NCBI RefSeq assembly: GCF_964030745.1
Contig: NZ_OZ034918.1
Span: 60,001 to 92,000, forward strand
Origin: Candidatus Saccharimonadota bacterium
GTDB taxonomy: Bacteria > Bacteroidota > Bacteroidia > Cytophagales > Amoebophilaceae
Direction of reading: 5' to 3'
Length of the DNA: 32,000 bases
A program made the position numbers and the translations under genes. Positions within the stretch are counted from its first letter, which is position 1. Each line of letters begins with the position of its first letter. This document shows, one piece after another, positions 5,470 to 29,542 of the stretch. The notes beneath the pieces were generated by a model. That model saw only the letters and a list, made by a program, of their open reading frames with translations. It had not been told where the DNA came from and searched no databases.

Positions 5470-6814
5470 GAGTCTGTCTTTTAAAGTGTGTAAATAATTT
5501 TTAGGTTGTATATTCTTGAGCGTATATTTTACCCATTAAATTTATTTACACCGATGAAAAGAAAAGAGACACCCAAAGACGGCATAAGCAAGGCTATAGA
5601 TGTACTTGTAGACTCAGGCGTAGACCTCTCGACCCTATTTGATCAAGACGGTTTACTCAAACAATTAAGTAAGCGTCTTGTAGAAAAAGCATTAGAGTCA
5701 GAAATGGATAGCCATTTAGGCTATAACAAGCATGCTCGTAGTGATTCAGAGAATGCACGTAATGGATTATCCAGCAAGCAAGTTGTCACTGATAATGGGG
5801 TTATATCGGTTGAAGTTCCAAGAGATAGATCCTCTACTTTTGAACCTGTTTTATTACCTAAACGTCAAACAAGAATTCCTGGTCTAGATGACAAGATCTT
5901 ATCTCTGTATGCTAAAGGTATGAGCCTATCAGATATTCAGATTCAAATACAGGAATTATATGGTGCAGAAGTTAGTGAAAGCCTCATAAGTAACATCACA
6001 GATTCTGTTATTGAAGATGTTAAGATATGGCAAAATCGCCCATTAGAATCAGTCTATCCTATTGTTTTTTTTGATTGTTTTGTAGTTAAAGTTAGACAAG
6101 ATAAACGTATCATCAACAAGGCAGTCTATGTTGCTTTAGGTATAGATAGATCTGGCATAAAGGATGTTTTAGGTCTGTGGATGAGTGAAAATGAAGGAGC
6201 TAAATTTTGGTTAGGCAATTTAACAGAACTCAAAAATCGGGGTATGAACGATATGCTCATTGCATGTACAGATAACCTGCCAGGTATGTCTGAGGCAATC
6301 GCTGCTGTATACCCTAAAACAGATCACCAACTCTGTATTGTTCATGCCATTAGGAATAGTTTACAATATGTTTCTTATAAACATAGAAAGACATTAGCTG
6401 CTGATTTAAAGCCAATTTATACGGCAGTTACGGAAGAAGAAGCCCTGATGGCATTAGAAACTTTTGCTACTAAGTGGGACAAACAATACCCACAAATAGC
6501 CAAGTCTTGGTATGCTAATTGGAATAATCTGATCGTGTTTTTACAATATCCTAGTGCCATACGTAGGGTCATTTACACAACCAATGCCGTCGAATCTGTA
6601 AATAGCCAATTTCGTAGAGTTACCAAAAATAAAAGGGTCTTTCCTAACGATATAGCTGTGTTTAAAACATTATATTTAACTATTAACTACATGACTAGAA
6701 AATGGACCAGCTCGGTTCAAAATTGGAGTGAGGCTATGGCTCATTTTTTAATTAAATTCGAAAACAGAATCTAAAAACACTAAAAAATTATTTACACACT
6801 TAACTGGACAGAGC
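5470..6814 (+). mobile_element. IS256-family insertion sequence (about 1345 bp) with imperfect terminal inverted repeats and a 9-bp target duplication
   Basis: The left end gagtctgtcttttaaagtgtgtaaataatttttag and the reverse complement of the right end gctctgtccagttaagtgtgtaaataattttttag are imperfect inverted repeats. Direct repeat ccagtccag lies at 5461-5469 and 6815-6823. The element carries a single Mutator-type transposase ORF. Confidence 0.85.
5554..6774 (+). CDS. IS256-family (Mutator-type) transposase
   Basis: The protein has the typical IS256 layout: ALESEMDSHLGY...NGxxxKxVxTxxGxIxVxVPRDRxSTFEPxLLPKRQTR, then LSLYAKGMSLSDIQ, then the DDE region (VFFDCFVVKV ... ACTDNLPGMSEAI ... TTNAVESVN). 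The ATG at 5554 (MKRKETPKDG) is preferred over the TTG at 5506 listed in the ORF track. Confidence 0.9.
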   Translation: MKRKETPKDGISKAIDVLVDSGVDLSTLFDQDGLLKQLSKRLVEKALESEMDSHLGYNKHARSDSENARNGLSSKQVVTDNGVISVEVPRDRSSTFEPVLLPKRQTRIPGLDDKILSLYAKGMSLSDIQIQIQELYGAEVSESLISNITDSVIEDVKIWQNRPLESVYPIVFFDCFVVKVRQDKRIINKAVYVALGIDRSGIKDVLGLWMSENEGAKFWLGNLTELKNRGMNDMLIACTDNLPGMSEAIAAVYPKTDHQLCIVHAIRNSLQYVSYKHRKTLAADLKPIYTAVTEEEALMALETFATKWDKQYPQIAKSWYANWNNLIVFLQYPSAIRRVIYTTNAVESVNSQFRRVTKNKRVFPNDIAVFKTLYLTINYMTRKWTSSVQNWSEAMAHFLIKFENRI

Positions 6815-6938
6815 CCAGTCCAGTATAAAGATAATTATAGCCAATCAAAAAAAGTTTAGCAAAAACCATCCTCTATTGTTAAATAAACTCTGCCTTCGAC
6901 AGTTCTTTATCAGATTTATAAACACGATGGTAATGAGT

Positions 6939-8128
6939 TGTAGTAGTTGATATTTAATCTGACATTTATTAATTTGTGTTGATATAAATACCGACTACTA
7001 TTATGAATTTACATCAAAAAATCATCAAGCCGAAAGTAGGCTTATTGGAGCTAGCAAAAACGTTGGGGAACATTTCATCGGCGTGTAAAACTATGGGTTA
7101 TAGTAGAGATAGCTATTATCGCTTCAAAGCCTTGTATGAAACAGGCGGTCAAGAGGCTTTACAAGAGATAAGCCGTAGGAAGCCGATTATGGCTAATAGA
7201 GTAGATCCTAGTATAGAAAAAGCAGTAGTAGATATGGCGATAGATTATCCAGCCTATGGCCAGCTTAGAGTATCTAATGAACTAAAGCAACAAGGTATCC
7301 TGGTCTCTCCTGGCGGTGTCAGGTCTATCTGGTTACGTAATGACTTAAATAATATAAAAAAACGTCTTAAAGCCTTAGAAGCTAAAATGGCTCAAGATGG
7401 CCTTGTTTTAACGGAATCTCAGCTATCCGCATTAGAAAAACGTAAGCATGAACAAGAAGCATGTGGAGAAATAGATACAGAACACCCTGGTTATTTAGGC
7501 TGTCAAGATACTTATTACGTTGGTAACTTTAAAGGGATAGGTAAGGTTTATACGCAAGTATTTATAGATAGTTATTCTCGGGTAGCTCATGCAAAACTCT
7601 ATACTGATAAGACAGCCTTGACAGCTGCTGATATGTTAAATGATAGAGTATTGCCTTGGTATCAAGAACAAAGCATACCCCTCTTGCGCATTCTAACAGA
7701 TCGTGGTACTGAGTATAAAGGTAAAATAGAGCATCATGCCTTTGAGTTGTTTTTAAGCATAGAAGGCATAGAACATACTGTTACTAAAGCCTATTCACCG
7801 CAAACCAACGGGTTCTGTGAGCGGTTTAATAAAACGATGAAACAGGAATTCTTTGATACAGCTATGCGTAAGAAGATCTATACAGACCTGGATGTCTTGA
7901 AACAAGATTTAGATAGCTGGTTACATTATTATAATCATGAGCGACCACATTCTGGAAAGTACTGTTACGGTAAAACGCCTATACAAACTTGGGAAGATAG
8001 TAAAAAACTAGCCTTTGAAAAAAATAATCAAATCGCGTATCTTAAGAGCATACCTGACAAACTAAACTTAACTGACATCTATACAGTCTAATTTTTACTG
8101 CCTGTCAGATTAAATATCAACTACTACA
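6939..8128 (+). mobile_element. IS481-family insertion sequence, copy 1, intact (1190 bp)
   Basis: Perfect 26-bp terminal inverted repeats: tgtagtagttgatatttaatctgaca (6939-6964) and tgtcagattaaatatcaactactaca (8103-8128). A 7-bp direct repeat aatgagt flanks the element at 6932-6938 and 8129-8135. Confidence 0.9.
7003..8091 (+). CDS. IS481-family transposase (HTH plus rve/DDE integrase core)
   Basis: 362-aa single ORF. N-terminal HTH ([36 protein letters not shown]). Integrase-core motifs follow: DTYYVG...[44 protein letters not shown]. Confidence 0.9.
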
Positions 8129-8542
8129 AATGAGTATTTTTTGTATTTCACATATCTATTCTAAATTCCCGATTTGTTATATAAGTTATATTATGTTAAA
8201 TAGAAAAAAGTGGCCGTTAGAGGCAGTGGTGTTAAACAATCATGTATGATCTGCCTGTTTCTTTATATTTAGTGATGTGTAGTACGGCATACTGTATGGG
8301 TTGTATCGTATATTGCTGCATATTAATCATGGGAAATTTCTTTCCCCTGTGCTTGTTGATTTGATCTTAACGCAATTGTAGCATATGAAATATGCGTAGA
8401 TACACTTTACGTAGTAAAGTATAGTGTGCTATACTTTTAAAAAAGTACCGACGTTTTTAATATAAACTGTAAGGGAAAAAATAGTTGTATGCTCCGAAGT
8501 AGTGTTGCGTTGTTTTAATAAAATTCTATACAGTGGATGAGC

Positions 8543-10210
8543 TTATTTTTTTAGATCTTTTACTTGTATTTCATACGCCCAGTCGTCTATCATTCTGGTT
8601 TCCTCATTGAAGTTAATGCCTAGTAGTATAATGGCTTTTTGTCTAAGTAAGTAAGGCTTATAATACCCGTTTGCTTTGATTTGGTCTAAGGCTATTTTGC
8701 CGCTGGATTTGTACTTTATTTCTATAATGTAAATGGCTGTTTCTAATTCTAAAACGATATCTGATCTGCCTTGACTGGAAGCAGATTCACTATACATTTG
8801 CATTCTCCTACCTCCTAGAAATCCCAACCCTTGCAGTAGCATATGTAAATTGCTGTGGTACTGCTTTTCTTGTTTCGTATCTAAGTAATAAGGAAGGGTT
8901 GAAAATACCGTATTGATGTGATCTATAAAGGTTTCAACTTTTTTATCAGATAATGCTTGTCTGATGGTATCGCGCTCGTGTATAAAGTAATCTTTTACGC
9001 TTTTTTCCAGACTAGACTGTATACTTTTCTGAAAAGACGCTTCTATTTCTTTATTGGGAAATTTTAATCTATATAGACCACTAGGTTCATCATAATGGTC
9101 AATGGTGAGATAGCCGGTTTGAAACATTAGAGACTTTAAACTAATCTCATTTCTACTTTCTGTATACATTAAGTCTTCTCTGACGGCCTCTATTTGGAGG
9201 TTGCCCATGTTAATATCAAACCTATCAGGATCTGCTAGCATTTGGTTAATGAGTAAGCTTGGACTACCTGACTCGTACCAGTAGTTGGCTAGTTCGCCAG
9301 AGTCTAAAAATCGTAGTGTAGACCATGGATTATACACACTTAGGCCATTCTGATGGAATCTATATCCATTGTAATAAGCCGCAATACGCTGCATTACTTC
9401 TGATTCAGTTATTTTTTTATTTTCTTTTTTGCTCCATTGCTCAGCAATATCTTCTAATTTTTTTGAGAATATAGTTAGGATTTCTTGTTGCGTATAACCA
9501 AACATGGCATCAGCAGATGCATCAATGGTAATATCTTTCAAATGATTAGCGCCTGAAAACACATCAGATAAACTAAATTTGCTTACCCCAGTGATAAAAG
9601 TAAATTGAAAATGTTTGTTGAGGGATTTCAAAGTCATAAAGAAATCTTTCATGACCTTGATGTTAGCTTTCTCTAGATCTGAGCCTTTTGTTAGATGAAC
9701 AATAGGTGCATCGTATTCATCTATAAGGACTACTATTCTAGGTTCATAAACAGATTGTATATTTTCCTTGTTGTCTATAGTATCTTCTAGATGTATCAGT
9801 TGTAACACTAGACTACGCAGTGCATCTTTAACAGTAACATCTTCTATTTTTACTTTATACGAAAAGGCTATTTCTTTTAATACCATTTTAATAGATGCGC
9901 TTAGCTCTTCGGGTGTGTTATTCGATACCCCTGAAAAGTCCAAATTAATCACCGGATATTTCTTCCAGTCATATCCATTTTCCGGTTTACCTATATGGTA
10001 ATCTTTAAAAACTTCTTGCTCGTCATTGCATATGGTAGCCAGTGTATCGATAAATAGAGACTTTCCAAATCGCCTAGGTCTAGCTATAAAGATAGGATTT
10101 CTTTTTTCAATCAATTCTTGTGCATATCTTGTTTTATCTACATAATAGCCTGTTTCAATGACTGATTTAACATCTGAATAGCCAATAGGCAGTGCATTTA
10201 TTTTACGCAT
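8543..10210 (-). CDS. AAA-ATPase_like (DUF1703-type) protein with a C-terminal PD-(D/E)XK (PDDEXK_9-type) nuclease domain
   Basis: The N-terminus LPIGYSDVKSVIETGYYVDKTRY...IFIARPRRFGKSLFIDTL is the characteristic start of the Bacteroidota predicted AAA-ATPase family. The C-terminus GRSDIVLELETAIYIIEIKY shows a D...E-x-K nuclease motif. The ATG lies 4 nt after the stop of the upstream gene. Confidence 0.8.
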   Translation of the reverse strand: MRKINALPIGYSDVKSVIETGYYVDKTRYAQELIEKRNPIFIARPRRFGKSLFIDTLATICNDEQEVFKDYHIGKPENGYDWKKYPVINLDFSGVSNNTPEELSASIKMVLKEIAFSYKVKIEDVTVKDALRSLVLQLIHLEDTIDNKENIQSVYEPRIVVLIDEYDAPIVHLTKGSDLEKANIKVMKDFFMTLKSLNKHFQFTFITGVSKFSLSDVFSGANHLKDITIDASADAMFGYTQQEILTIFSKKLEDIAEQWSKKENKKITESEVMQRIAAYYNGYRFHQNGLSVYNPWSTLRFLDSGELANYWYESGSPSLLINQMLADPDRFDINMGNLQIEAVREDLMYTESRNEISLKSLMFQTGYLTIDHYDEPSGLYRLKFPNKEIEASFQKSIQSSLEKSVKDYFIHERDTIRQALSDKKVETFIDHINTVFSTLPYYLDTKQEKQYHSNLHMLLQGLGFLGGRRMQMYSESASSQGRSDIVLELETAIYIIEIKYKSSGKIALDQIKANGYYKPYLLRQKAIILLGINFNEETRMIDDWAYEIQVKDLKK

Positions 10211-10214
10211 GATT

Positions 10215-11156
10215 TTATTTTTTTAAAGATCTTTTTCTTTCCCTTTCGTTGATTTCGTATGCTATGATACTTTTCCAAGCAAGCCTGTCTTGCTCAGCTG
10301 CGATAGAGAGCTGGCTGGTTTTAGTTAAAGTAGAGGCCTTGTGTCGTAATTTAACAGCTTTTTCTTTAAGTTTTGTAGATACAATGATATTGTTTTGTAA
10401 CAAGTTGTAAGCTGCTAGCCGCTCATTGACCTTAAGCCCCGCTGCATCATCATCTAATAGCTGTTGAATCTCTTTATTACTAGCTAGCAATTCATCGGCT
10501 TCTCTTTGGTAAGCGTCGGCTAGGAGTAACTGTTTGGTATGACTGTATTCCCCGACCGTACGATCATATTGAATCGACTTTTCAATGTCCTTATTGAGTT
10601 TTCGCAAATCAGTATATTTTCCATTTGCTGCTTTGATACCCACTAATTTACCCGTATTTTTCAGAAATCTATTCACTGAATGAATGGTTTGTTTTTCCCT
10701 TGCAGAACTATATTTCATGTTTTTTTTAAGCTTACTGGTATATTTGGTTTCCGGTATATACCTAGATGGGTTTAAGCTGATACCGAGTACATCTTCTGTT
10801 TGGCCTAAGATCATTTTTTTAAAGCTCATATTTTTGAGTTTTTTACCTAGGTTAATGGCATCTCTGACCGTCCTATTCGCTTTTTCTATGGCTCGTTTGG
10901 TTTCCATAGCTGTCCTGGCACTATCTCTGATTTTATCAAAAGTACTTTTTTCTGTTTGGGCAATCGTTTTTAGAAGATCTACCTGTTTGTCTTGCTTACC
11001 AAATAGTTTTTTGACCGTACTACCAAATGGTATATAATCTAACGCACTGTTAACCACATCTTTGAGGGTTTCTCCAGCCTTATCCCACTTATCTCCTGCA
11101 TAAGCTACAGTAGCGGTTGATAGAAACAGTAGCCATAAATATCTTTTATAACTCAT
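10215..11156 (-). CDS. hypothetical secreted coiled-coil protein in the tra-remnant operon
   Basis: 313-aa ORF with signal peptide MSYKRYLWLLFLSTATVAYAG. The rest is Lys/Glu-rich and helical. It is tightly packed between a small upstream ORF (stop abuts its ATG) and the AAA-ATPase_like gene. Confidence 0.65.
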   Translation of the reverse strand: MSYKRYLWLLFLSTATVAYAGDKWDKAGETLKDVVNSALDYIPFGSTVKKLFGKQDKQVDLLKTIAQTEKSTFDKIRDSARTAMETKRAIEKANRTVRDAINLGKKLKNMSFKKMILGQTEDVLGISLNPSRYIPETKYTSKLKKNMKYSSAREKQTIHSVNRFLKNTGKLVGIKAANGKYTDLRKLNKDIEKSIQYDRTVGEYSHTKQLLLADAYQREADELLASNKEIQQLLDDDAAGLKVNERLAAYNLLQNNIIVSTKLKEKAVKLRHKASTLTKTSQLSIAAEQDRLAWKSIIAYEINERERKRSLKK

Positions 11157-11306
11157 CTATTTTTTGATTGTTTTTCCTGCACAGACATATACCTCTCTAC
11201 CTTTATGCAGTTTAAAGGACTTAGTTTTGGTTATGTCTTTCATAAACTGGGTGGCCATTTTACTTATCTCACTGGCTAAGCCCGAGTCGGCTTGATCGGT
11301 GATCAT
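11157..11306 (-). CDS. possible small ORF (49 aa from the first ATG) between the TraN-like gene and the 313-aa gene
   Basis: The minus-strand frame reads MITDQADSGLASEISKMATQFMKDITKTKSFKLHKGREVYVCAGKTIKK. Its TAG (11157-11159) directly abuts the ATG of the next gene (11154-11156). It falls below the ORF-track size cutoff and I recognise no family. Confidence 0.2.
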   Translation of the reverse strand: MITDQADSGLASEISKMATQFMKDITKTKSFKLHKGREVYVCAGKTIKK

Positions 11307-11344
11307 ATCCAATACTTTATGACTGCTGTTTTCAATAATGGGGT

Positions 11345-12020
11345 TTACGCCTTCACAAAAGAGACCAGGTAAGAAAGACGCGCAGGTATAGATAAGTTTA
11401 CCAAGCGACTACCAGATTGTTCAATAAAACCTACTAAGAGTTTTCCATTAATAGATGTGGTATAGCGTGGTAAGACGTATACAAACATTTTACTGCTATA
11501 AGCGGGTATCACTCGATCTTCTAAGCCATATATAGGAAAGACGAGTTTTCTACTTTTTTTACTGTTGTAGTGCTGGAAGTTTGTTTCAAAGAGTTCAAAG
11601 GTTAGACCTGTTTTATTTTCCAAGTATATTTTTAGGTAGGTATGCTCCTCATCATGAAATAGATTGGTAAGGATAAGGTCATAATACCTAGTATGCTTCC
11701 CTACATTAAAATAGACCTGATCCATTGATCGAATGTGTTGTATTTTTTGTACTACCTGATGGTCTAATGTAGGTTTTAAGCTAGCCTCCTCTCCTCCTTT
11801 GGTTGTAAAATCATAGACTTCTTGTGGTTTATGGGTAGATCGCAATAGACCGTTAAAGACCTTATGCCCCTTTTTAAAAGTAACCACTATAGAGGTAGGG
11901 GCTGTACATCGATGAAAATCGATGCGCAACTTGTATCTGCTCTAAAGGGCTATAATGGGTTATTTTTTCTGCTGCTTGAACTGTACAATAAAAAAAACAA
12001 CAGATCATTAGGCTACGCAT
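11345..12020 (-). pseudogene. conjugative-transposon TraN-like (DUF4138-type) gene, apparently frameshifted near its 5' end
   Basis: The C-terminal two thirds (VGKHTRYYDLILTNLFHDEEHTYLKIYLENKTGLTFELFETNF ... FVYVLPRYTTSINGKLLVGFIEQSGSRLVNLSI) follow the Bacteroides TraN pattern as I recall it (LxGIYxHxGxLYF...IxNxSxxxFDVD...FxLxKFT...LxVxLxExxGGRxLxLxI). The signal peptide (MRSLMICCFFYCTVQAAEK...QIQVAHR, ATG at 12020) sits in a different frame from the body. The frame switch lies around 11925-11935, in a short T/A run. Confidence 0.5.
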
Positions 12021-12310
12021 TATTTTGGACATAGGCATCTTTATTTTTAGGGTCAACAAAAGTAAAATCAGTAATCAGCAAGCCGTAAGGGTTTTCTTTG
12101 CTTCTGTGCGTTGTTTTTAGTTTAAAATAGACCCCTCCGGGTAGTTCTTTATGATCTAGTCCACTAAGCTTTTTGCCTTCTAACCCCAAGAACCGCAAAG
12201 TAGTCGTGTAAAAGGCTACTACTTCATAAGGGTAGTCCATTAGATTGGTCTCTATCTGTTCAACAGACAAGATGGATACACCGTTATAGGTTTTATATAC
12301 CTGAAATACT
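12013..12310 (-). pseudogene. 3' fragment of an unknown gene, 5'-truncated by IS481 copy 2
   Basis: The minus-strand frame is open from the IS boundary (12310) without a stop: VFQVYKTYNGVSILSVEQIETNL...VQNNA. Its TAG overlaps the TraN-like ATG (ATGCGTAG), which implies former translational coupling. I recognise no family. Confidence 0.5.
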
Positions 12311-12374
12311 TGTAGTAGTTGATATTTAATCTGACATTTATTAATTTGTGTTGATATAAATACCGACTACTATT

Positions 12375-13421
12375 ATGAATTTACATCAAAAAATCATCAA
12401 GCCGAAAGTAGGCTTATTGGAGCTAGCAAAAACGTTGGGGAACATTTCATCGGCGTGTAAAACTATGGGTTATAGTAGAGATAGCTATTATCGCTTCAAA
12501 GCCTTGTATGAAACAGGCGGTCAAGAGGCTTTACAAGAGATAAGCCGTAGGAAGCCGATTATGGCTAATAGAGTAGATCCTAGTATAGAAAAAGCAGTAG
12601 TAGATATGGCGATAGATTATCCAGCCTATGGCCAGCTTAGAGTATCTAATGAACTAAAGCAACAAGGTATCCTGGTCTCTCCTGGCGGTGTCAGGTCTAT
12701 CTGGTTACGTAATGACTTAAATAATATAAAAAAACGTCTTAAAGCCTTAGAAGCTAAAATGGCTCAAGATGGCCTTGTTTTAACGGAATCTCAGCTATCC
12801 GCATTAGAAAAACGTAAGCATGAACAAGAAGCATGTGGAGAAATAGATACAGAACACCCTGGTTATTTAGGCTGTCAAGATACTTATTACGTTGGTAACT
12901 TTAAAGGGATAGGTAAGGTTTATACGCAAGTATTTATAGATAGTTATTCTCGGGTAGCTCATGCAAAACTCTATACTGATAAGACAGCCTTGACAGCTGC
13001 TGATATGTTAAATGATAGAGTATTGCCTTGGTATCAAGAACAAAGCATACCCCTCTTGCGCATTCTAACAGATCGTGGTACTGAGTATAAAGGTAAAATA
13101 GAGCATCATGCCTTTGAGTTGTTTTTAAGCATAGAAGGCATAGAACATACTGTTACTAAAGCCTATTCACCGCAAACCAACGGGTTCTGTGAGCGGTTTA
13201 ATAAAACGATGAAACAGGAATTCTTTGATACAGCTATGCGTAAGAAGATCTATACAGACCTGGATGTCTTGAAACAAGATTTAGATAGCTGGTTACATTA
13301 TTATAATCATGAGCGACCACATTCTGGAAAGTACTGTTACGGTAAAACGCCTATACAAACTTGGGAAGATAGTAAAAAACTAGCCGAGGCCGTTGCAATA
13401 GACCTTTACGATTTGCCATAA
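12375..13421 (+). pseudogene. IS481-family transposase truncated by the IS5 insertion
   Basis: The protein is identical to the copy 1 transposase through ...[10 protein letters not shown], then reads into IS5 sequence ([11 protein letters not shown], stop). The remaining codons ([25 protein letters not shown]) lie at 14696-14773. Confidence 0.9.
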
Positions 13422-14690
13422 AAAGTATCTTTTTATTTTTTAGAAGAAGGTAAAAAAAGGTTAAATTCTATTGATTTTTTTAGGTATTGATGCTTAAAAC
13501 TTTTAATAATATTGTGTATGTCGCTCAAGCAAACTAAGCAATTAAGTTTTTCAGATATTTCCGCCAATAAGCGTAAGTGCAAACACACTTTCTTTGATCA
13601 AATCAACAAGCTAGTTAATTGGTCAGTAGTAGAAAAAGCACTCCGATTACATTATCCTAAAGGTTTACGTTTATCAGGCAAACCGGCCTATAGTCCTCTG
13701 CTTCTATTCAAAATGCTATTGCTACAGACGTGGTATGGCTTGAGCGACTATGCAGTCGAAGAAGAAGTGAATGATCGTATCACTTTTAGCAGATTTTGTG
13801 GTATTTCGATGGATAGTTCTGTTCCAGATCATAGTGTACTAAGTAGATTTAGAACTACCCTTACAGAGAAGAATGCTTTAGAAAAGTTATTGCATATCAT
13901 TAATAATCAGCTATCTGATCATGGTGTATTGGTTCAAAACGGTTCAGCAGCTGTAGATGCTTCTATTACCCCTACCCCTAGACGCCCTAAAGGTAAAAAA
14001 AGCTACGATCTGCATGAAGATGGAACCATAACCACAGCTGAAAGTTATCAAAAAGGAGTAGATCCAGAAGCAAGTTGGATAAAAAAAGGCCATCATCTCT
14101 ACTATGGCTATAAGCGGCATGTTCTTGTGGAAAGCAAAGAGGGGTTGGTGCTAGCCGTAGGTACCACAAAAGCATCTAGTCATGATAGTGGGCATTTACA
14201 GGTATTATTGGATAAAGTAAGGCTAAAATCAGGCAGCAGACTCTATGCAGATAAAGGCTATAGCGGGTCGCCCAACGAAAATTTACTAAAGAAAAAGAAG
14301 TTAAAATCAGCTATTCAGAAAAAAGGGGCTAGAAACAATCCTTTATCACCCACTGCTAAACGGTTTAATAAATTAGTATCTAAAACGCGCTATAAAGTAG
14401 AACGGGTATTTGGAAGTATTAAAAGTTGGTTCCGTAGCTCAGGAGCCAGATATATAGGCCTTGCTAAAACCCATACGCAACATGTTATGGAGGCAATAGC
14501 CTATAACTTATATAGGTCCCCAAACATCATATTAAGAGGTATCTAGGGGAATGGTGTGTCCAAAATAGATTGAAAATGACTAAAAAATCAGTAAATAAAT
14601 AGTTTTATACCACTATAACATCAAATATGGCAAGGAAATAACCCTGGAAGATTAATCAAAATTATACCTTCAACCTATCACAACGGCCTC
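13386..14690 (+). mobile_element. IS5-family insertion sequence (about 1305 bp) nested inside IS481 copy 2
   Basis: Termini gaggccgttgcaatag (13386-) and ctatcacaacggcctc (-14690) are imperfect inverted repeats. tagcc is duplicated at 13381-13385 and 14691-14695. Comparison with the uninterrupted copy 1 (tagcc at 8009-8013) defines the insertion exactly: 1310 bp including the duplication. Confidence 0.9.
13518..14546 (+). CDS. IS5-family DDE transposase
   Basis: The N-terminal DUF772-like region (GKPAYSPLLLFKMLLLQTWYGLSDYAVEEEVNDRITFSRFCGI...VPDHSVLSRFR) is followed by a DDE_Tnp_1-like region (VDASIT ... YADKGYSG ... RYKVERVFGSIKSWF...ARYIGLAK...AIAYNL). The ATG at 13518 is preferred over the TTG at 13512. 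Confidence 0.9.
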   Translation: MSLKQTKQLSFSDISANKRKCKHTFFDQINKLVNWSVVEKALRLHYPKGLRLSGKPAYSPLLLFKMLLLQTWYGLSDYAVEEEVNDRITFSRFCGISMDSSVPDHSVLSRFRTTLTEKNALEKLLHIINNQLSDHGVLVQNGSAAVDASITPTPRRPKGKKSYDLHEDGTITTAESYQKGVDPEASWIKKGHHLYYGYKRHVLVESKEGLVLAVGTTKASSHDSGHLQVLLDKVRLKSGSRLYADKGYSGSPNENLLKKKKLKSAIQKKGARNNPLSPTAKRFNKLVSKTRYKVERVFGSIKSWFRSSGARYIGLAKTHTQHVMEAIAYNLYRSPNIILRGI

Positions 14691-22598: not shown

Positions 22599-23702
22599 CT
22601 ATTCAAATACTGTGCAATCGTTCAACTTTTTTAAAAAATTTTGAATCAATATAGGTTTGGGTAAAGTTTCAATCTCTGCGCGATTAAATGATACCAAAGA
22701 AAATTGATTGAATAGATGGTTTGCTTCTTGCAAGAAAGCTGACGTAACCTCTATTTTATGAAATTTTACCAACAACTTCTGATGGGTCAACAAATGGCGC
22801 TCCTCTTTTTCAAAAGTAACAACAGGTAAGTGATGTTTTTGGGCCAGACAAAACAAAGGATCATTCATCTGATTTACAACCAAACGCTGCTCATTTTCTA
22901 ATAAATAGAAATCATACATCCCTTTCCAAATATCACTTTTTATACGTTTTTTCATATATATAACATCCCCATATGTCAAAATGAAATAGTCAAAATAACG
23001 GATCCTTTTATGTAGCTTATTACTTTTAACAGGCAATACTTTCTGCCTATCAGTATAAAAAGCAATACAATAGTTTTTAAAAATACAGGTAGCACAACAA
23101 GGAGATGCTGGTGTACATTGGAGCGCACCAAAATCCATAATAGCTTGACTATAGGTATCAGGTTGCAAATGATCTACCAATAGAGTAGCAAATTGATGCA
23201 TTTGTTTCCTTCCTTGCGATGTACCCACATCATAGGTTAGGCCAAAAATACGTGCCAATACACGGTAAACATTTCCATCTACCGCAGCAACTACTTCTTT
23301 AAAAGCAACCGCAGCAATGGCTGCAGCTGTATAAGGTCCAATGCCCTTAAGCATTCGTAATGCTTGATAACTAGTGGGAAAAAAGCCATTATGTTGCGCA
23401 ACAATGGTTTGCGCACAATGGTGTAGGTTCCGTGCTCTACTATAGTACCCCAATCCCTGCCACAAACGTAGCACCTCCTGCTCTGTAGCACTGGCTAGAG
23501 CGGTTACGGAAGGATATTTAGCTATAAACCGCTCATAATAAGGCAACCCCTGAGCTACTCTTGTTTGTTGTAAAATAATTTCTGATAACCATATCTTATA
23601 TGGATCCTTAGTAAAACGCCAGGGTAAAGAACGCTGATGTGAGGCATACCAAGCAAGCAACAATTTACGAAAGGTAACATGGGTAAGCGTACTAATGACC
23701 AT
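22599..23702 (-). CDS. mutY: A/G-specific adenine DNA glycosylase
   Basis: LLAWYASHQRSLPWR...DPYKIWLSEIILQQTRV, the HhH motif (LKGIGPYTAAAI), and the Cx6Cx2Cx5C iron-sulfur cluster loop (CTPASPCCATCIFKNYC), followed by a C-terminal NUDIX-like domain. The start is set at the internal ATG (23700-23702, MVISTLTHVTFRK). The 87-codon upstream extension in the ORF track has no MutY counterpart and runs across the divergent promoter region. Confidence 0.85.
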   Translation of the reverse strand: MVISTLTHVTFRKLLLAWYASHQRSLPWRFTKDPYKIWLSEIILQQTRVAQGLPYYERFIAKYPSVTALASATEQEVLRLWQGLGYYSRARNLHHCAQTIVAQHNGFFPTSYQALRMLKGIGPYTAAAIAAVAFKEVVAAVDGNVYRVLARIFGLTYDVGTSQGRKQMHQFATLLVDHLQPDTYSQAIMDFGALQCTPASPCCATCIFKNYCIAFYTDRQKVLPVKSNKLHKRIRYFDYFILTYGDVIYMKKRIKSDIWKGMYDFYLLENEQRLVVNQMNDPLFCLAQKHHLPVVTFEKEERHLLTHQKLLVKFHKIEVTSAFLQEANHLFNQFSLVSFNRAEIETLPKPILIQNFLKKLNDCTVFE

Positions 23703-23886
23703 AGGCAATAGAATAACTAACAGCGTAATACATATTTTATTATATTTGGAAAACCTATTGCTACATACCTCAGTAGATAGTAGGATAGGTATTATGTATA
23801 AATGGCTGAAAATACAAAAATTTAAGTATAGCAGCCATTTTTTCGCTATAGATAAACATCCAAGCATCAGAAGGGCAAAAGATACT

Positions 23887-24684
23887 ATGAGCTTAAAATT
23901 AACCAACCCACTTATTTTTTTAGACTTAGAGACTACGGGTACCAACGTAGTACATGATCGCATCGTAGAAATTGCAATGATTAAGTTGATGCCAGATGGG
24001 AAGCGCTTAACCTTTTATAAAAGAGTCGATCCAGAACAAACCATTCCTATTGAAGCCAGTTTAATTCATGGTATTTATGCAGAGGATCTAAAAGGCAAAC
24101 CAACTTTTAAACAAATCGGTAAAGAATTGATTGCTTTTCTAAAGGGCGCTGATCTAGCTGGTTTTAATCTACTTCGTTTTGATATACCCATATTAGCAGA
24201 AAGCTTTTTGCGTGCAGATTTAGACTTTAAAGTAGAAAATCGCAAGATTGTAGATGTGCAAAAACTGTTTCACCTAATGGAAAAAAGAACATTAAAAGCA
24301 GCCTATCTATTCTATTGTCAAAAGGAGCTAGAAGGGGCCCATAATGCCATGGTAGATATAGAAGCCACACTAGAGATATTGGTAGAGCAAGTAAAAAGAT
24401 ATGAAAATCAGTCTGTAGTAGATGCTTTAGGCAATACATTAGGGATTATAAAAAATGATGTAGCTACCTTACATGATTTAACCAATACCAATATGGTTGA
24501 TTTTGCAGGCAGAATTGTTTACAACGAGCAACATATCCCTACCTTTAACTTTGGCAAACACAAAGGAAAAACAGTAGCCGAAGTGCTCAAACTAGAACCC
24601 TCTTACTATAATTGGATGATTCAAGGAGATTTTCCTTTGGATACCAAACGTAAACTAACACAAATTAAAATGGGGATCATGTAA
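23887..24684 (+). CDS. DnaQ-like (DEDDh) 3'-5' exonuclease
   Basis: The Exo I motif FLDLETTG comes right after the ATG at 23887 (MSLKLTNPLIFLDLETTG). FNLLRFDIPIL (Exo II) and HNAMVDIEAT (Exo III, H-x4-D) follow. The upstream part of the tracked ORF (from 23695) is judged non-coding. Confidence 0.85.
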   Translation: MSLKLTNPLIFLDLETTGTNVVHDRIVEIAMIKLMPDGKRLTFYKRVDPEQTIPIEASLIHGIYAEDLKGKPTFKQIGKELIAFLKGADLAGFNLLRFDIPILAESFLRADLDFKVENRKIVDVQKLFHLMEKRTLKAAYLFYCQKELEGAHNAMVDIEATLEILVEQVKRYENQSVVDALGNTLGIIKNDVATLHDLTNTNMVDFAGRIVYNEQHIPTFNFGKHKGKTVAEVLKLEPSYYNWMIQGDFPLDTKRKLTQIKMGIM

Positions 24685-24730
24685 TATACTGCTTTGTATC
24701 TGTCCAACACTATGGCCATAGTGATAAAAT

Positions 24731-24868
24731 GCCCCTGTAAAAAGTTTCGAAATAGAACCCACCCCTTGCAGATGATTGGGAAAAACAGCTTCCTTTGAAG
24801 CCCGCGCAGCGGTCGACTTCTGTTTTTCCATCTGTAAGGGATGGGTTCCGGAACTTTTTGCCGAGGGC
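24731..24868. repeat. 138-nt GC-enriched long imperfect palindrome (element A); candidate structured RNA or REP/MITE-like element
   Basis: Nested pairings run along the whole length. These are gccc/gggc, taaaaag/ctttttg, gtttcg/cggaac, gaaccca/tgggttc, ccccttgcagatg/catctgtaagggatggg, and ggaaaaacag (24779-24788)/ctgtttttcc (24820-24829). Small apical hairpins are cttc-cttt-gaag and ccgc-gca-gcgg. The core is homologous, in inverted orientation, to 28618-28676. Confidence 0.6.
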
Positions 24869-24880
24869 TTGATTTTTTAC

Positions 24881-24967
24881 CCACTTTTTTATCAAGAAAA
24901 AAGTGGAATACAATTCATTATTAACCAGTGACGTGAATAGATACGCTGCTTTTTTCAAGAAAAAAGC
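24881..24967. other. two look-alike A/T-stem hairpins upstream of priA
   Basis: ccactttttt-atcaag-aaaaaagtgg (24881-24906) and gctttttt-caag-aaaaaagc (24948-24967). Both are perfect stems built on tttttt...caag...aaaaaa. Confidence 0.4.
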
Positions 24968-25000
24968 ATATCATTTCCTTTTTAAAAACTTGCATTCCAC

Positions 25001-27490
25001 TTGAAAAAATTTGCAGATGTTATACTACCGCTTCCCATTAAGCCTTTAACCTACCATATTCCCCTACTATACCAAAGTATGGTAGCTATAGGCAGCAGTG
25101 TACTCGTACCATTACGTAACGGTAAGCTATTGTTGGCTGTTGTTTTGAAATGCCATTGCACAGCCCCCACCTACCCCACCAAGGATGTATTAGGAGTAAT
25201 CTACTCAACACCCCTATTTACACACAAACAATTGGCATTCCTAGAATGGATGGCGGATTATTACCTATCCACCCTAGGGGAAACCTTATCCATGGCATGG
25301 CCCAAATTCCTCAACCTCCCTAACCATGTAGTCTTTCAAGTCAATAGGCCTACTAACCAAAATGAAACATCAACCAACGAACAAGCCATTAGCCCTTTTT
25401 CGAAAGCTTCAACAACAAAATTGCCCTTAGAAATGGAATTTGGAGAGCGGGCTATTATCAATGCGCTACAATACCAACCCTTATCTTATAAATCCATTAT
25501 TCAACTCATGGTGCCAAAAGAAGCCAATAAGGCGCTTATCTCCTTACTATCTAAAAACTGGATCCGGGCAACTGCCACAGTCGCCATCGATCCGACCGAT
25601 GAGGACAATCCCTATTTTACCCTCTCTCCTACCCTCGATCTAAAGCGCCTTACCATCACTCAGCTAGCACCACGATCTGCCCAACAACAAGCCCTTCTAG
25701 CTTATTTATTATCCAACAAAGGTAAGTTCATCCAATATGCTTCTAAACAAGAGCTTGTAGCTTATTCCAAGTCTGCCTTTCACACGCTGTTAAAGAAAGG
25801 TATTTTAATAAAAGCCAATCTAAACCAGTTACCCGTATCAACTTTTACAGAACCCTTAGCACCATTAGCTACCTTAACCACATTTCAAAACAAAGCATTC
25901 ATAGATATACAAACAGCGTTTGCTAAAAAAGCAGTTGTACTCCTACACGGTGCAATAGGCAGCGGCAAAACAGAGTTGTATATGCATTTGATTGCATCCA
26001 CCTTGCGCCAGCAAAAACAAGTATTGCTTTTAGTGCCAGAAATAGGTTTGGTAACACATATAGTAGAACGCATCAGACCTTTCTTAGGAGACTGGTTGGT
26101 GGTGCACCATTCGAAACAATCACATAAAGAACGTTTAAAGACATGGTCACGTGTGTTACACCACCCCCCTTTATTGGTAATAGGCACACGCTCTGCCGTT
26201 TTACTACCTTTTAAGGCGCTACAACTCATTATTGTCGATGAAGAGCACGACCCTGCCTATAAACAACAGGATGCAATGCCTACCTATCATGCACGAGAGA
26301 GCAGCATTCTATTGGCCCAACAGCATCAAGCAAACGTTTTACTAGGTTCGGGCACACCTTCGGTAGAAAGCTATTATAATGCCCAATCTGGAAAGTATGG
26401 TCTAGTAACACTAGGCCATAGATTTGGCTCCGCAAGCCCTCCTAAATTATTTTTTATTGACTTAAATATAGAAAAAAAGCGTAAAGCGATGCGCGAGAAT
26501 TTCTCGCTTACGCTGCTATCTAAGCTCCAAACTAATAATATAGAAGGTGGCCAAGCGATGATTTTTCAAAACAGAAGAGGGTATGCCCGCTATTTTTTAT
26601 GTGCCGCTTGTGGATGGATTCCCCGCTGTCTTACTTGCGCAGTAAGCCTTACCTACCACCAAGAAGTGCATCAACTACGCTGTCATTATTGCGACTATGC
26701 TACGCCTCCTTTTGGGTCATGTAACCATTGTGGATCACACCAACTACATAGCATAGGGTTTGGTACAGAAAAACTAGAAGAGAGCTTACAACTTATTTTT
26801 CCGGAACAAAAGATTGGTCGTATGGATTTAGATAGCACAAAAGGGAAAAGCAGCTACCAATCCATTTTAAAAGCAGTCACCTCAGGGTCAATAGATATTT
26901 TAGTAGGCACGCAGATGATGGCGAAAGGGTTGGATTTGGCCAATATACGCCTAATAGGCATACTAGACATAGATGGGCTGCTTTACTTTCCTGATTTTCG
27001 ATCCAACGAAAAATGTTTTCAACTGATTACACAGTTAGCAGGAAGAGCAGGTAGACGCAACCAACAAGGCAGTGTGTTTATTCAAACCAGTCAGACCCAT
27101 CATCCTTTGTTTGCATACCTAGCCAATGGTGACTACGAAGGAATGTATAAATCTGAATTAGCAGAAAGAAAGCGATTTCTATACCCCCCCTATATTAGGC
27201 TGATTAAACTAAGCCTAAGTTGTACCAACGCCTCCACGCTGCAATCAGGAGCCATTGCACTAAAAACCATATTAGAACAACAGTTTGGGAGCATGGTACT
27301 AGGCCCTCAAAAACCATTGGTTGATAAGGTTAGAAATCATTTTTTACTAGATCTATTTTTAAAAATAACCAGTAAAAATGCAAATAGTTTACAAAACACC
27401 AAAGCAGCCTTAAAGAGCGCTTGTAAACATACACTGGGTAAAGGACCACATAGAAATATAAAAATAGTATTAGATATTGATCCGATTTAA
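25001..27490 (+). CDS. priA: primosomal protein N' (replication restart helicase PriA)
   Basis: The N-terminus FADVILPLPIKPLTYHIP is the typical PriA start. Walker A is GAIGSGKTELY, and the DEEHD box is present. The Cys-rich zinc region reads CAACGWIPRCLTCAVSLTYHQEVHQLRCHYCDY...CNHCGS. The helicase C-terminal motifs are VGTQMMAKGLD and AGRAGR. The only in-frame start after the upstream stop (24983-24985) is the TTG at 25001. Confidence 0.9.
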   Translation: MKKFADVILPLPIKPLTYHIPLLYQSMVAIGSSVLVPLRNGKLLLAVVLKCHCTAPTYPTKDVLGVIYSTPLFTHKQLAFLEWMADYYLSTLGETLSMAWPKFLNLPNHVVFQVNRPTNQNETSTNEQAISPFSKASTTKLPLEMEFGERAIINALQYQPLSYKSIIQLMVPKEANKALISLLSKNWIRATATVAIDPTDEDNPYFTLSPTLDLKRLTITQLAPRSAQQQALLAYLLSNKGKFIQYASKQELVAYSKSAFHTLLKKGILIKANLNQLPVSTFTEPLAPLATLTTFQNKAFIDIQTAFAKKAVVLLHGAIGSGKTELYMHLIASTLRQQKQVLLLVPEIGLVTHIVERIRPFLGDWLVVHHSKQSHKERLKTWSRVLHHPPLLVIGTRSAVLLPFKALQLIIVDEEHDPAYKQQDAMPTYHARESSILLAQQHQANVLLGSGTPSVESYYNAQSGKYGLVTLGHRFGSASPPKLFFIDLNIEKKRKAMRENFSLTLLSKLQTNNIEGGQAMIFQNRRGYARYFLCAACGWIPRCLTCAVSLTYHQEVHQLRCHYCDYATPPFGSCNHCGSHQLHSIGFGTEKLEESLQLIFPEQKIGRMDLDSTKGKSSYQSILKAVTSGSIDILVGTQMMAKGLDLANIRLIGILDIDGLLYFPDFRSNEKCFQLITQLAGRAGRRNQQGSVFIQTSQTHHPLFAYLANGDYEGMYKSELAERKRFLYPPYIRLIKLSLSCTNASTLQSGAIALKTILEQQFGSMVLGPQKPLVDKVRNHFLLDLFLKITSKNANSLQNTKAALKSACKHTLGKGPHRNIKIVLDIDPI

Positions 27491-27673
27491 TAAATCGCTT
27501 GCAAAATTTTAGAAATTTTAATAAAATAATTATTTTTAAATGGATATTAAGCTGTACGCGGTGGTATGCAAAATTTTACACAATACCTGCAAAGTGTTCA
27601 TACTCAATAAAAAATATAAATATAATCATCAACCAACTATCCCCTAAAGGGATCTCTTAACTTCTTAATTAAT

Positions 27674-28603
27674 ATGCTTATAGGAATTATTTTAGCTACT
27701 TTAATTACCTCCTGCAGTACGCCTTATTTCTCCTACCCTAATAATAAGAGACTCTATTCCGATGTTGTCTCTAGCAAAGTTAACCGAAACGACACTCCAC
27801 CAGCTCTAACTACTATCAAGGACGAACAGTGGCTAGATAGAGTCACCAATACCTACCTGCAAAATAATTACCAAAACTGCCTGAAACCAACGAGCAGACT
27901 AACACGATGGCGTCCAAGAAATATCAAGGATAGCGATACAATAAGAAAATTTAAAGACAAAGGTGAAATGCCCTACAAAGACTTACAAGATGATACGTTA
28001 TGGCACCTCCAAGCAACCCATGATATGGAGGGTGTAATTGATTTTCTAAAATATGTAGTAAAAACAGGAGATCAGGATAAGTATTTCACCAACTTAAAAA
28101 ACGGCCGAGGCATACAGGCTAATGCTAGCCTAGTATTGGTATTGAAAAATACCGACAAACAAGAAGGATTATCCCCTCAAGAAAAGTTATACCTTCCAAG
28201 AGAGCTACACCCTAATGGAAGGCTGAAAATCATAATGAACACCAATACCAATAATCCTAACAAAATCACCATCTACCATATGATGTTTCATGAAAATACA
28301 AAAAGGCCTAAACAAAGGTTTAATGGACAACATCCCAAGAGCAACAAAAACAAAAACAAAAATAAGGAAATGACTCTTATTAAGGACAAAGATAACGGTT
28401 ATCGTATTTTAGAAAAAAAACGTTTAGAAAAGAAAGAAAATGATTACGTTATTGAGTATATACCTCCAAAAGACTCCCCATATAAATCAAAAAGACTTTA
28501 TATTCACCCGATATGCCGATCTAAAAATTCGTATCTATTCACGCCTGTGGCTGGGCCCCTTATCTCCTTCGATAAAAAGCCTGGCCCGATAGTAAATAGA
28601 TGA
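27674..28603 (+). CDS. hypothetical basic lipoprotein
   Basis: The N-terminus MLIGIILATLITSC carries a signal peptide and a lipobox Cys. The 309-aa protein is Lys/Asn-rich, with a KNKNKNK tract encoded by an (aacaaa)n microsatellite near 28334-28355. The last 13 codons lie inside palindromic element B. Confidence 0.65.
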   Translation: MLIGIILATLITSCSTPYFSYPNNKRLYSDVVSSKVNRNDTPPALTTIKDEQWLDRVTNTYLQNNYQNCLKPTSRLTRWRPRNIKDSDTIRKFKDKGEMPYKDLQDDTLWHLQATHDMEGVIDFLKYVVKTGDQDKYFTNLKNGRGIQANASLVLVLKNTDKQEGLSPQEKLYLPRELHPNGRLKIIMNTNTNNPNKITIYHMMFHENTKRPKQRFNGQHPKSNKNKNKNKEMTLIKDKDNGYRILEKKRLEKKENDYVIEYIPPKDSPYKSKRLYIHPICRSKNSYLFTPVAGPLISFDKKPGPIVNR

Positions 28604-28740
28604 ATCGATATGTTTTTCAGTGGGAAAATCGTAAACTCAGCCCGCAAGCGGGCTTCAAACAGACGATTTTCTAATCCGCTAAAAAAGATATCGCTCAGCT
28701 GTTAGTGTTTTACTAGAGCGCCATTTTTTATCGAAGGAGA
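28563..28740. repeat. 178-bp long imperfect palindrome (element B), with a core homologous to element A
   Basis: The outer arms are tctccttcgataaaaa (28563-28579) and ttttttatcgaaggaga (28724-28740). The middle arms are cgatatgtttttcagtgg and ccgctaaaaaagatatcg. The inner stem is gaaaatcgt (28624-28632) with acgattttc (28663-28671). The apical hairpin is agcccg-caag-cgggct (28639-28654). Confidence 0.65.
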
Positions 28741-28921
28741 CGCGGGACGGGTACTTGGTCAGCTATTTTCTTTTTCAGAAAAACGTAATCACAGTGATGA
28801 ATGGATATTCACGAAAAGCTAGAAAAAACGTATTTTCTGCCACAGTGGTGAATAAATACTAAATAAAAACAACTAGACCTTATGGGTATAGGCCCTCTGA
28901 ATGGATACCGATACTTCCTTA

Positions 28922-29542
28922 TTAACCGAGTAAATCATAACCAACCCTTAGCGTAAGTTGCTTGGGTCTATAGGCTTTATTGCCATCCATTAGATCAGCA
29001 CTTATAGAACTTCTATCTATAGATAACCGCGCAAACTCCCAACAGATATCCATTACAATATTTCCCAGATCTATACCCAAACCTAATATATAACCATTGA
29101 TTTTTTCTTTATAGCTTGCTATAAGTTTGTTCCCTGTAAAACTTGAATCATCTAGTCCACTCAAGGGTACGCGAAAGATAAGACCAACATGAGGACGAAA
29201 CAGACTAAAAAGCGGAACGCCAAGCGTCAAAGGTAGGGTAATGTATTGAAAATGGTCACGGTTTAGTTTATGAGGCAATTTACGCCAATCTAATACAAAG
29301 AAGGCATCTAACTTAGCATATACAAGCCAAACATCCAGCTTGGCAAAGCCTCCGATTTGCAGTGCCAAATTGTTAATAGAAGTTTTTTGGAGTTGCTGTT
29401 TTGAGTTAAAACTAGTATGGAACCCTGCTATCCCCAAAGATGGACCTGTGGCTAGCCCAATGGCATGTGATGCATCTAGAACCAGGAAATAGCCTAAAAA
29501 TGGCAGCATGCATTTTTTTATATTGATTACTTTCATATACAT
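28922..29542 (-). CDS. putative outer-membrane beta-barrel protein (small porin/OmpW-like class)
   Basis: 206 aa, with a signal-like N-terminus (MLPFLGYFLVLDASHA). Amphipathic strands alternate with Gly/aromatic turns (LGIAGFHTSF, LQIGGFAKLDVWLVYAKLDAFFVLDW, GYILGLGIDLG, LTLRVGYDLLG). The family assignment is tentative. Confidence 0.55.
   Translation of the reverse strand: MYMKVINIKKCMLPFLGYFLVLDASHAIGLATGPSLGIAGFHTSFNSKQQLQKTSINNLALQIGGFAKLDVWLVYAKLDAFFVLDWRKLPHKLNRDHFQYITLPLTLGVPLFSLFRPHVGLIFRVPLSGLDDSSFTGNKLIASYKEKINGYILGLGIDLGNIVMDICWEFARLSIDRSSISADLMDGNKAYRPKQLTLRVGYDLLG

Follow-up and report, generated by a model that had tools for sequence, protein, structure and literature searches.

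The 32,000-nt stretch analysed here (the window, positions 60001-92000 of the source genome G000, which belongs to a Cardinium insect symbiont of the Amoebophilaceae, Cytophagales, and consists of one contig of 1,093,165 bp with 39% G+C) carries a long hairpin between an exonuclease gene and priA, and the core of this hairpin recurs, inverted, in a second element further downstream. What kind of elements are these, and is the fold itself maintained? The initial annotation, which named the two elements A and B, had offered three options (a small structured RNA family, a REP/BIME-like element or a MITE) without choosing a strand. We conclude that A and B very probably are MITEs with IS66-type ends that are mobilised by an IS66-type transposase and carry a fold-back hairpin as cargo, the pairing of which has been kept. 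It is based on direct observations: conserved ends with target duplications, a high copy number, sites that are empty in relatives, an element with matching ends and a transposase gene, and covariation in the stem.

A stable hairpin with a core shared by two elements

The hairpin had been described accurately. As RNA, positions 24725-24875 fold into a single long interrupted hairpin whose paired part is exactly 24731-24868, with a free energy of -70.2 kcal/mol compared to -37.7 +/- 4.1 for shuffled sequences (z = -8.0; reached by 0 of 200 shuffles). The RNA fold of the minus strand is weaker (-63.6), and the DNA fold of the whole element A has -51.5 kcal/mol (z = -8.6). The higher G/C content reported for the hairpin is also evident: it is 50.7% within 24731-24868, compared to 37% across the window and 35% for the 700 nt that precede the hairpin. 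The core shared between the two elements was recovered by local alignment: the reverse complement of 24769-24834 matches 28618-28676 with a score of 38 (shuffles: 15 +/- 3, with 0 of 2000 reaching 38), and the identical 12-mer, GCGGGCTTCAAA, is found at 28648-28659 of the plus strand and at 24794-24805 of the minus strand. The inner stems (GAAAAACAG/CTGTTTTTC in A and GAAAATCGT/ACGATTTTC in B) differ at three positions in each arm and all three pairs have remained Watson-Crick, exactly as the annotation had it. B likewise forms a long hairpin, of about 178 nt, and its outer arms are, as had been said, unrelated to those of A (Table 1).

Downstream of the long hairpin, A contains a small second one (CCACTTTTTTATCAAGAAAAAAGTGG), and the stretch that reaches from GGGCTTGATTTTTT, just upstream, through this small hairpin at 24881-24906 is among the best-conserved A-family stretches across species. 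A further perfect small hairpin, GCTTTTTTCAAGAAAAAAGC, is located just beyond the right end of A (24949-24968) and is similar to the A-internal CCACTTTTTTATCAAGAAAAAAGTGG; it occurs a single time in the genome and is absent from the empty sites of the relatives.

Table 1. Coordinates of the features discussed in the text (window positions, except where G000 is given)
Feature	Position	Strand	Basis
Upstream neighbour, RNase T/ExoX-like exonuclease gene	23695..24684	+	Pfam RNase_T, ExoX-like_C; stop 11 nt before A
Left target duplication, 8 bp (ACTGCTTT)	24688..24695	.	7/8 match to GCTGCTTT
MITE family A, complete copy, 249 bp	24696..24944	+	97% identity to consensus of 25 full-length copies
Left TIR of A (GTATCTGTCCAACACTATGG)	24696..24715	+	Left boundary in all copies; fits IS66-type GTATC..TTCA....TGG
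Long interrupted hairpin (element A of the initial annotation)	24731..24868	+	RNA and DNA folds; covariation, 30 copies from 8 species
Apical core common to B, with GCCCGC..GCGGGC and the 12-mer	24769..24834	-	Local alignment; alignment of reverse-complemented A and B consensus
Small second hairpin within A (CCACTTTTTTATCAAGAAAAAAGTGG)	24881..24906	+	DNA fold; stretch well conserved across species
Right TIR of A (GTATCTATTCACGTCACTGG, read on minus strand)	24925..24944	-	Conserved right boundary
Right target duplication (GCTGCTTT)	24945..24952	.	Pairs with ACTGCTTT
Downstream neighbour, priA	25001..27490	+	Pfam PriA domains; start 56 nt after A
ORF of 309 aa, fast-evolving	27674..28603	+	Last 24 codons and stop within B (28531-28603)
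MITE family B, canonical 278-bp unit	28531..28808	+	96% identity to B consensus over 277 nt
Long hairpin of B, ~178 nt	28563..28740	+	Two folds, z = -7.1 and -7.9
Core of B, homologous to core of A; 12-mer at 28648-28659	28618..28676	+	Local and consensus alignments
51-nt extension with further IS66-type end (..GGTGAATAAATAC); solo-end fragment joined to B	28809..28859	+	Recurs at other B copies
IS66-family IS copies	G000 261007-262567, 35289-36849, 845043-846603		99.6-99.9% identical; 481-aa transposase open in 3/3

The hairpin is the interior of a 249-bp MITE

When 44 near-complete copies of A were aligned together with their flanks, all had the same sharp ends, and similarity stopped only well outside the hairpin. 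In the window, A extends from GTATCTGTTCAAC... to ...CGTGAATAGATAC (249 bp, 24696-24944) and is bordered by imperfect terminal inverted repeats of about 20 nt, GTATCTGTTCAACACTATGG / GTATCTATTCACGTCACTGG. If one mismatch is allowed, 16 of the 25 full-length A copies are flanked by 8-bp target duplications (for example GAAAAGTG, GATTAATG and GATTACAT). Matching duplications are absent at 9 of the 25 and also at the B copy of the window; as flanks are common to different copies, these absences would be best explained by recombination between copies.

BLAST searches of the whole genome identified about 45 near-complete copies of A; pieces of B are roughly twice as numerous and include 46 near-complete copies. 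Both families are present on both strands, and there are thus far more than two copies. The 12-mer alone occurs 95 times genome-wide. Fragments included, A and B account for at least 2.3% of the genome, the probes being shorter than the full elements. The consensus sequences (249 bp for A, 278 bp for B) consist of the long hairpin and the ends and have no similarity to a transposase. The hairpin in the window is therefore the interior of a 249-bp MITE and not a two-copy element. One A copy, at G000 3365-3613 (duplication GAAAAGTG), splits an ORF for eukaryote-like C2H2 zinc fingers (..HTGKKSFKCEQCGREFARKD..).

The insertion of A can be placed in time by comparison with other Cardinium species. 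The exonuclease-priA spacer has 316 nt in the source genome and 8, 37, 37 and 32 nt in four related species (G012, G006, G007 and G003). In these four relatives, conservation can still be recognised in the ~20 nt immediately preceding priA, and there is no trace of A in any of the four spacers, indicating that A was inserted in the source lineage.

Element B belongs to a sister family

When A is reverse-complemented, it can be aligned with B across both ends and the central core: A and B are sister families, present in opposite orientations in the window, and it is because of these opposite orientations that their cores look inverted relative to each other. The terminal inverted repeats of B are GTATCTATTCACGCCTGTGG / GTATCCATTCATCACTGTGA, with the canonical ends GTATCTATTCACGCC... 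and ...GTGATGAATGGATAC, and other B copies are flanked by 8-bp duplications (TGAAAATA, TTTTTATA, GGACTTAT and TTTATTTT). With its 51-nt extension, the B copy of the window spans 28531-28859 and is larger than had been described. B with this extension is also found at three other B copies, one of them with a duplication (TAATGTGA) flanking the whole 329-bp unit, and the extension fragment is also found alone elsewhere in the genome.

The two families are also found joined to each other. At G000 123328-124541, there is an A-B-A-B-A array, arranged head-to-tail with a period of 482 bp. Elsewhere, A2 and B form composites of about 500 bp that are repeated as single units, each flanked by an 8-bp duplication (e.g. 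241046-241813, TGATAAAG). The ORF of 309 aa that ends within B (27674-28603) has no Pfam match and 32-38% identity to its counterparts in other Cardinium; these homologues align only as far as residues 280-291. Three B copies (G000 141184-143542, 415900-418100 and 694594-696745) contain an IS110-family element with an open frame of 450 aa, which suggests that this element targets MITE sequence specifically.

An IS66-family element with related ends

The search for a parent element first covered multi-copy repeats of at least 600 bp. IS5-, IS481-, IS3- and IS1182/IS5-like elements as well as several paralogous gene families were rejected as parents, their ends being unrelated to those of the MITEs, and the IS110-family element (DEDD_Tnp_IS110) was rejected as partner, being an insertion into B. 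The partner was found via pairs of MITE ends flanked by matching 8-bp octamers: it is an insertion sequence of 1561 bp with one ORF of 481 aa that matches zf-IS66 (PF13005; 28.6 bits, cut-off 27.3) and DDE_Tnp_IS66 (PF03050; 109.7 bits, three open genes). This single-ORF form of IS66 corresponds to the ISBst12 group. Each of the three intact copies has its own 8-bp duplication (CATTTTTC, TCGATAAA and ATTTTTTG), and two of the three sit inside MITE copies, with 8-bp duplications. A fourth copy, near 1,001,946, is truncated.

The ends of the resident IS66-family element (GTAACGATTCAGCGGTGTGG and GTATCCTTTCAGGGGTGTGG, also GTAACGATTCAGCGGTGTGGTTTTT and GTATCCTTTCAGGGGTGTGGTTTTT) have the pattern GTATC..TTCA....TGTGG in common with the ends of A and B, at about 15 of 20 positions. 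Closer matches are found in other species: one IS66 end of G012, GTATCTATTCACCGCAGTGG, is identical to A-right and B-left in its first 12 nt and matches at 17 of 20 positions overall, and a second IS66 end of G012 agrees at 25 of 25 nt with the left terminus of one A-family copy in G006. As the resident ends match at only about 15 of 20 positions and the best-matching ends were seen in a different species, it is not certain that the resident transposase mobilises the MITEs; the cognate IS element may have been lost from the source genome. Between the interiors of A or B and the 1561-bp IS, there is no similarity beyond chance words of 8-10 nt, indicating that the hairpin is acquired cargo rather than the remnant of an IS deletion.

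Presence of the MITEs and presence of the transposase coincide: all seven Cardinium genomes in which 22 or more A matches were found (the source genome and six relatives) carry the 481-aa transposase or fragments of it, whereas of ten genomes with no more than four A matches, seven have none of it and three have weak remnants. These genomes are related to each other, and the co-occurrence is therefore supportive rather than independent evidence.

Distribution and insertion sites

A search of 16 other Cardinium genomes found A-family sequences, with 72-91% identity, in 13, cOegib (G010) among them. The family is abundant in six relatives (22-34 matches listed per genome), and outside of Cardinium there is one weak A-family match only. 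B-like sequences are found in 6 of the 16 genomes. A search for an exact 33-mer of the A core across 185,579 species genomes returned no match in other genomes. Divergence within the family is too high for a search by exact words; BLAST searches in the relatives were successful.

Most copies are inserted between convergent ORFs: this holds for 27 of 42 copies in family A and for 29 of 46 in family B (~64%, counting ORFs of 120 aa or more). Insertions that are tolerated at gene 3' ends usually show this pattern. Where the neighbouring genes are co-directional, the orientation of the elements relative to them is unbiased (4 versus 7 for A and 4 versus 5 for B). With the replication origin placed near 555 kb from the minimum of the cumulative GC skew, the A top strand is the leading strand in 29 of 42 copies (29:13, uncorrected p = 0.02; copies are non-independent), a bias too weak to build on. 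Other repeats are present in the window too: the region 5470-14690 contains multi-copy segments that include an IS481-family element at ~6930-8130 and two paralogues of ~1.65-1.75 kb of a 555-aa AAA-ATPase-like family with about six copies genome-wide.

Pairing in the hairpin is kept

The initial annotation had read the compensatory changes between A and B as a sign that the hairpin itself is maintained, and the A family provides stronger data for this than the comparison of A with B alone. The hairpin regions of 30 distinct copies from 8 species were aligned to a consensus structure of 48 pairs: standard pairs occupy 95.4% of the cells, compared to 88.7% when partners are shuffled and 42-55% when partners are slid by 1-3 columns. 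Changes on both sides are seen at 16 pairs (89 cells, compared to 30 in shuffles), and 0 of 500 shuffles reached any of the five measures. The middle helix (helix 3) is richest in such changes, with 10 of its 18 pairs changed on both sides in several combinations across species (arm pairs GAAGCCACCCCTT / AAGGGGTGGCTTC, AAAGTGCAGCTT / AAGCTGCACTTT and AAAACGCTCCTT / AAGGAGCGTTTT), and in two species the apical GCCCGC/GCGGGC has become GCCCCC/GGGGGC. Pairing in the A hairpin is clearly kept. The annotation had also envisaged an ordinary MITE with inverted repeats, target duplications and no covariation; this applies to A and B only by half, because they are MITEs of the ordinary type with a covariation that holds across 8 species.

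Whether one strand is preferred depends on the age of the mismatches. Recent mismatches in the source genome, counted as departures from consensus Watson-Crick pairs, are symmetric in both families (60 G.T and 54 A.C for A; 52 and 55 for B). Propagated mismatches, counted by energy-free alignment of one arm to the complement of the other arm, favour G.T on the A top strand (82 versus 25 A.C in total; 48 versus 24 in other species), and the top strand folds better in 24 of the 30 copies, by a mean of 7 kcal/mol. Of the earlier claim that wobble positions favour the plus strand in both elements, only a weak form thus remains: among the propagated variants of A, mismatches that are compatible with wobble pairing are moderately in excess on one strand, which is not decisive because the copies are non-independent.

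How can the paired changes be explained?

The observation that arms change in concert has two readings, and both leave the element a MITE. Quasi-palindrome correction is known from E. coli genetics: by a template switch during replication, one arm is copied from the other, and a change in one arm becomes matched in the other. The paired changes in the A hairpin could be a by-product of such intramolecular template switching rather than the result of selection on the fold. Consistent with this, recent mismatches are without strand preference in both families, as is expected for a process acting on double-stranded DNA, the orientation relative to co-directional genes is unbiased, and some copies, including the one in the window, combine arms of different variants. 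The propagated mismatches, which lean towards G.T on one strand in the relatives as well as in total, speak against it, as do the many double-sided changes in helix 3, with different combinations across species; a purely double-stranded process also does not predict that the same strand folds better in most copies. We regard the by-product explanation as possible, but somewhat doubtful.

Alternatively, the hairpin could primarily be a structured RNA, either a small RNA or a terminator or stabiliser acting in cis, with the repeats being copies of an RNA gene. The strong fold, the covariation and the mild G.U excess on one strand would all fit, and so would the placement of most copies between convergent ORFs, that is, at gene 3' ends. 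On the A top strand, the hairpin is followed by GGGCTTGATTTTTT, which is among the best-conserved blocks of the family, resembles a terminator tail and, judged by its sequence, would be compatible with a terminator. However, what is copied is a unit with transposon ends and target duplications, its copies are found in both orientations (including 4 versus 7 relative to co-directional genes) and also within genes and other mobile elements, and a simple promoter/terminator scan called nothing on the plus strand of A. Rfam 15 has no known family that matches: at gathering thresholds the only match in the window is a tRNA elsewhere, and at E <= 10 the region 24500-29000 has only a chance match to MAT2A within priA. 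A free-standing RNA family, as had been proposed, is therefore very improbable. Even less can be said for a REP/BIME-like element that is spread by a RAYT (IS200/IS605-type Y1) transposase, also among the original proposals: like REPs, A and B are palindromic, richer in G+C than their surroundings, intergenic and targeted by an IS110-family element, but REPs are palindromes of 20-40 nt with neither inverted-repeat ends nor target duplications, while A and B have 249-278 bp and possess both. Moreover, no Y1_Tnp gene (PF01797) was found in the 99.7%-complete single-contig genome, while positive-control genomes scored. We consider it next to impossible that A and B are REPs. The MITE option, by comparison, is borne out by the terminal inverted repeats, the 8-bp duplications at 16 of 25 full-length A copies, the tens of copies on both strands, the empty orthologous site in four species and a transposase-bearing IS66-family element with matching ends.

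A model for mobilisation and maintenance

How would such MITEs move, and why would they keep a hairpin? Each element is built of IS66-family ends of about 20-25 nt that enclose a non-coding fold-back cargo, with nothing encoded by the element itself. These ends would be recognised by an IS66-family DDE transposase, provided in trans from full-length elements, and insertion would occur at AT-rich sites with an 8-bp staggered cut, resulting in the 8-bp duplication. The A copy of the window was inserted between the exonuclease gene and priA after the split from the sequenced relatives, while B inserted the other way round where the next gene ends. The element passes its hairpin on, and in the lineages that spread the arms stay complementary. 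Most likely, we think, the element profits from a fold-back in one strand, either because transposition is aided or because transcription is ended or insulated at gene 3' ends, so that insertions there can be tolerated.

A more specific version would be that the hairpin cargo is a strand-specific module, selected in one strand for the benefit of the MITE and exchanged between MITE families. Exchange between families is suggested by the fact that A and B share the apical core and not the arms. Such a module could act as a built-in terminator or insulator, with the long stem and the invariant GGGCTTGATTTTTT rendering insertions at gene 3' ends harmless, or its single-strand fold-back could bring the two IS66 ends together. 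We think that this version is unlikely to be correct.

Relation to known elements

In the literature searched, the only MITEs described from Cardinium are two of cOegib, a spider symbiont: MITECca01 and MITECca02 are derived from an IS982-family element and were reported to be absent from other strains (PMC9769881). MITECca01 resembles A and B in that it belongs to the same genus, has about 240 bp, has many copies that are mostly intergenic or within mobile elements, and has a resident IS as its presumed partner. Its published description nevertheless sets A and B apart by ends, duplication length and distribution: MITECca01 has the ends of ISCca4 (IS982 family) and was reported as restricted to cOegib, while A and B have IS66-type ends with 8-bp duplications, and the A family extends to most other Cardinium genomes searched. 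The cOegib genome itself has at least 25 A-family matches (e.g. C1:26682-26893), which the text of PMC9769881 does not mention.

Known members of the IS66 family include ISPpa5a and ISPpa7 of Paracoccus (PMC3281130) and ISCca16 of Cardinium cOegib (PMC9769881), and experimentally captured IS66-family elements produce 8-bp duplications (PMC3281130, Table 2). The resident partner and the MITEs share with this family the 8-bp duplications and ends that begin with GTA, and the partner also shares the transposase with zf-IS66 and DDE_Tnp_IS66 domains, which A and B lack. Classic IS66 elements have 2.7-2.8 kb and accessory ORFs (PMC3281130); the resident partner is shorter, with 1561 bp and one ORF.

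Two MITE-like repeats of other bacteria are comparable in structure. As summarised in PMC3184786, bcr1 of the Bacillus cereus group is mobile and MITE-like, has a length of about 155 bp and target duplications, and maintains its fold by compensatory base-pair changes, as A and B do; upkeep of a hairpin by paired changes has thus already been described. It differs by duplications of 5 bp and by being transcribed, and the summary names no transposase partner, whereas the partner family of A and B is identified. QMITE2 of Coxiella burnetii (PMC5896051, as shown in PMC10969869) is likewise a MITE of an obligate intracellular bacterium with a very stable stem-loop core, with duplications of 7-9 bp and inverted ends of 23-29 bp; its sequence and host phylum are unrelated. 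Our literature search found no description of A or B and no paper that links IS66 and MITEs in Cardinium. A and B are new MITE families of an already known type, not a new kind of system.

Consequences for Cardinium genomes

For genome annotation, A and B matter as sequences that create false ORF ends, as in the last 24 codons of the ORF at 27674-28603, split genes and seed rearrangements. The published picture of Cardinium MITEs as strain-specific and IS982-derived is incomplete, because the A family with its IS66-type ends is present in most of the Cardinium genomes searched, cOegib among them. A and B are also a convenient test case for distinguishing selected hairpins from self-correcting palindromes, because their partner is clear, its transposase is present in intact copies and their cargo covaries strongly.
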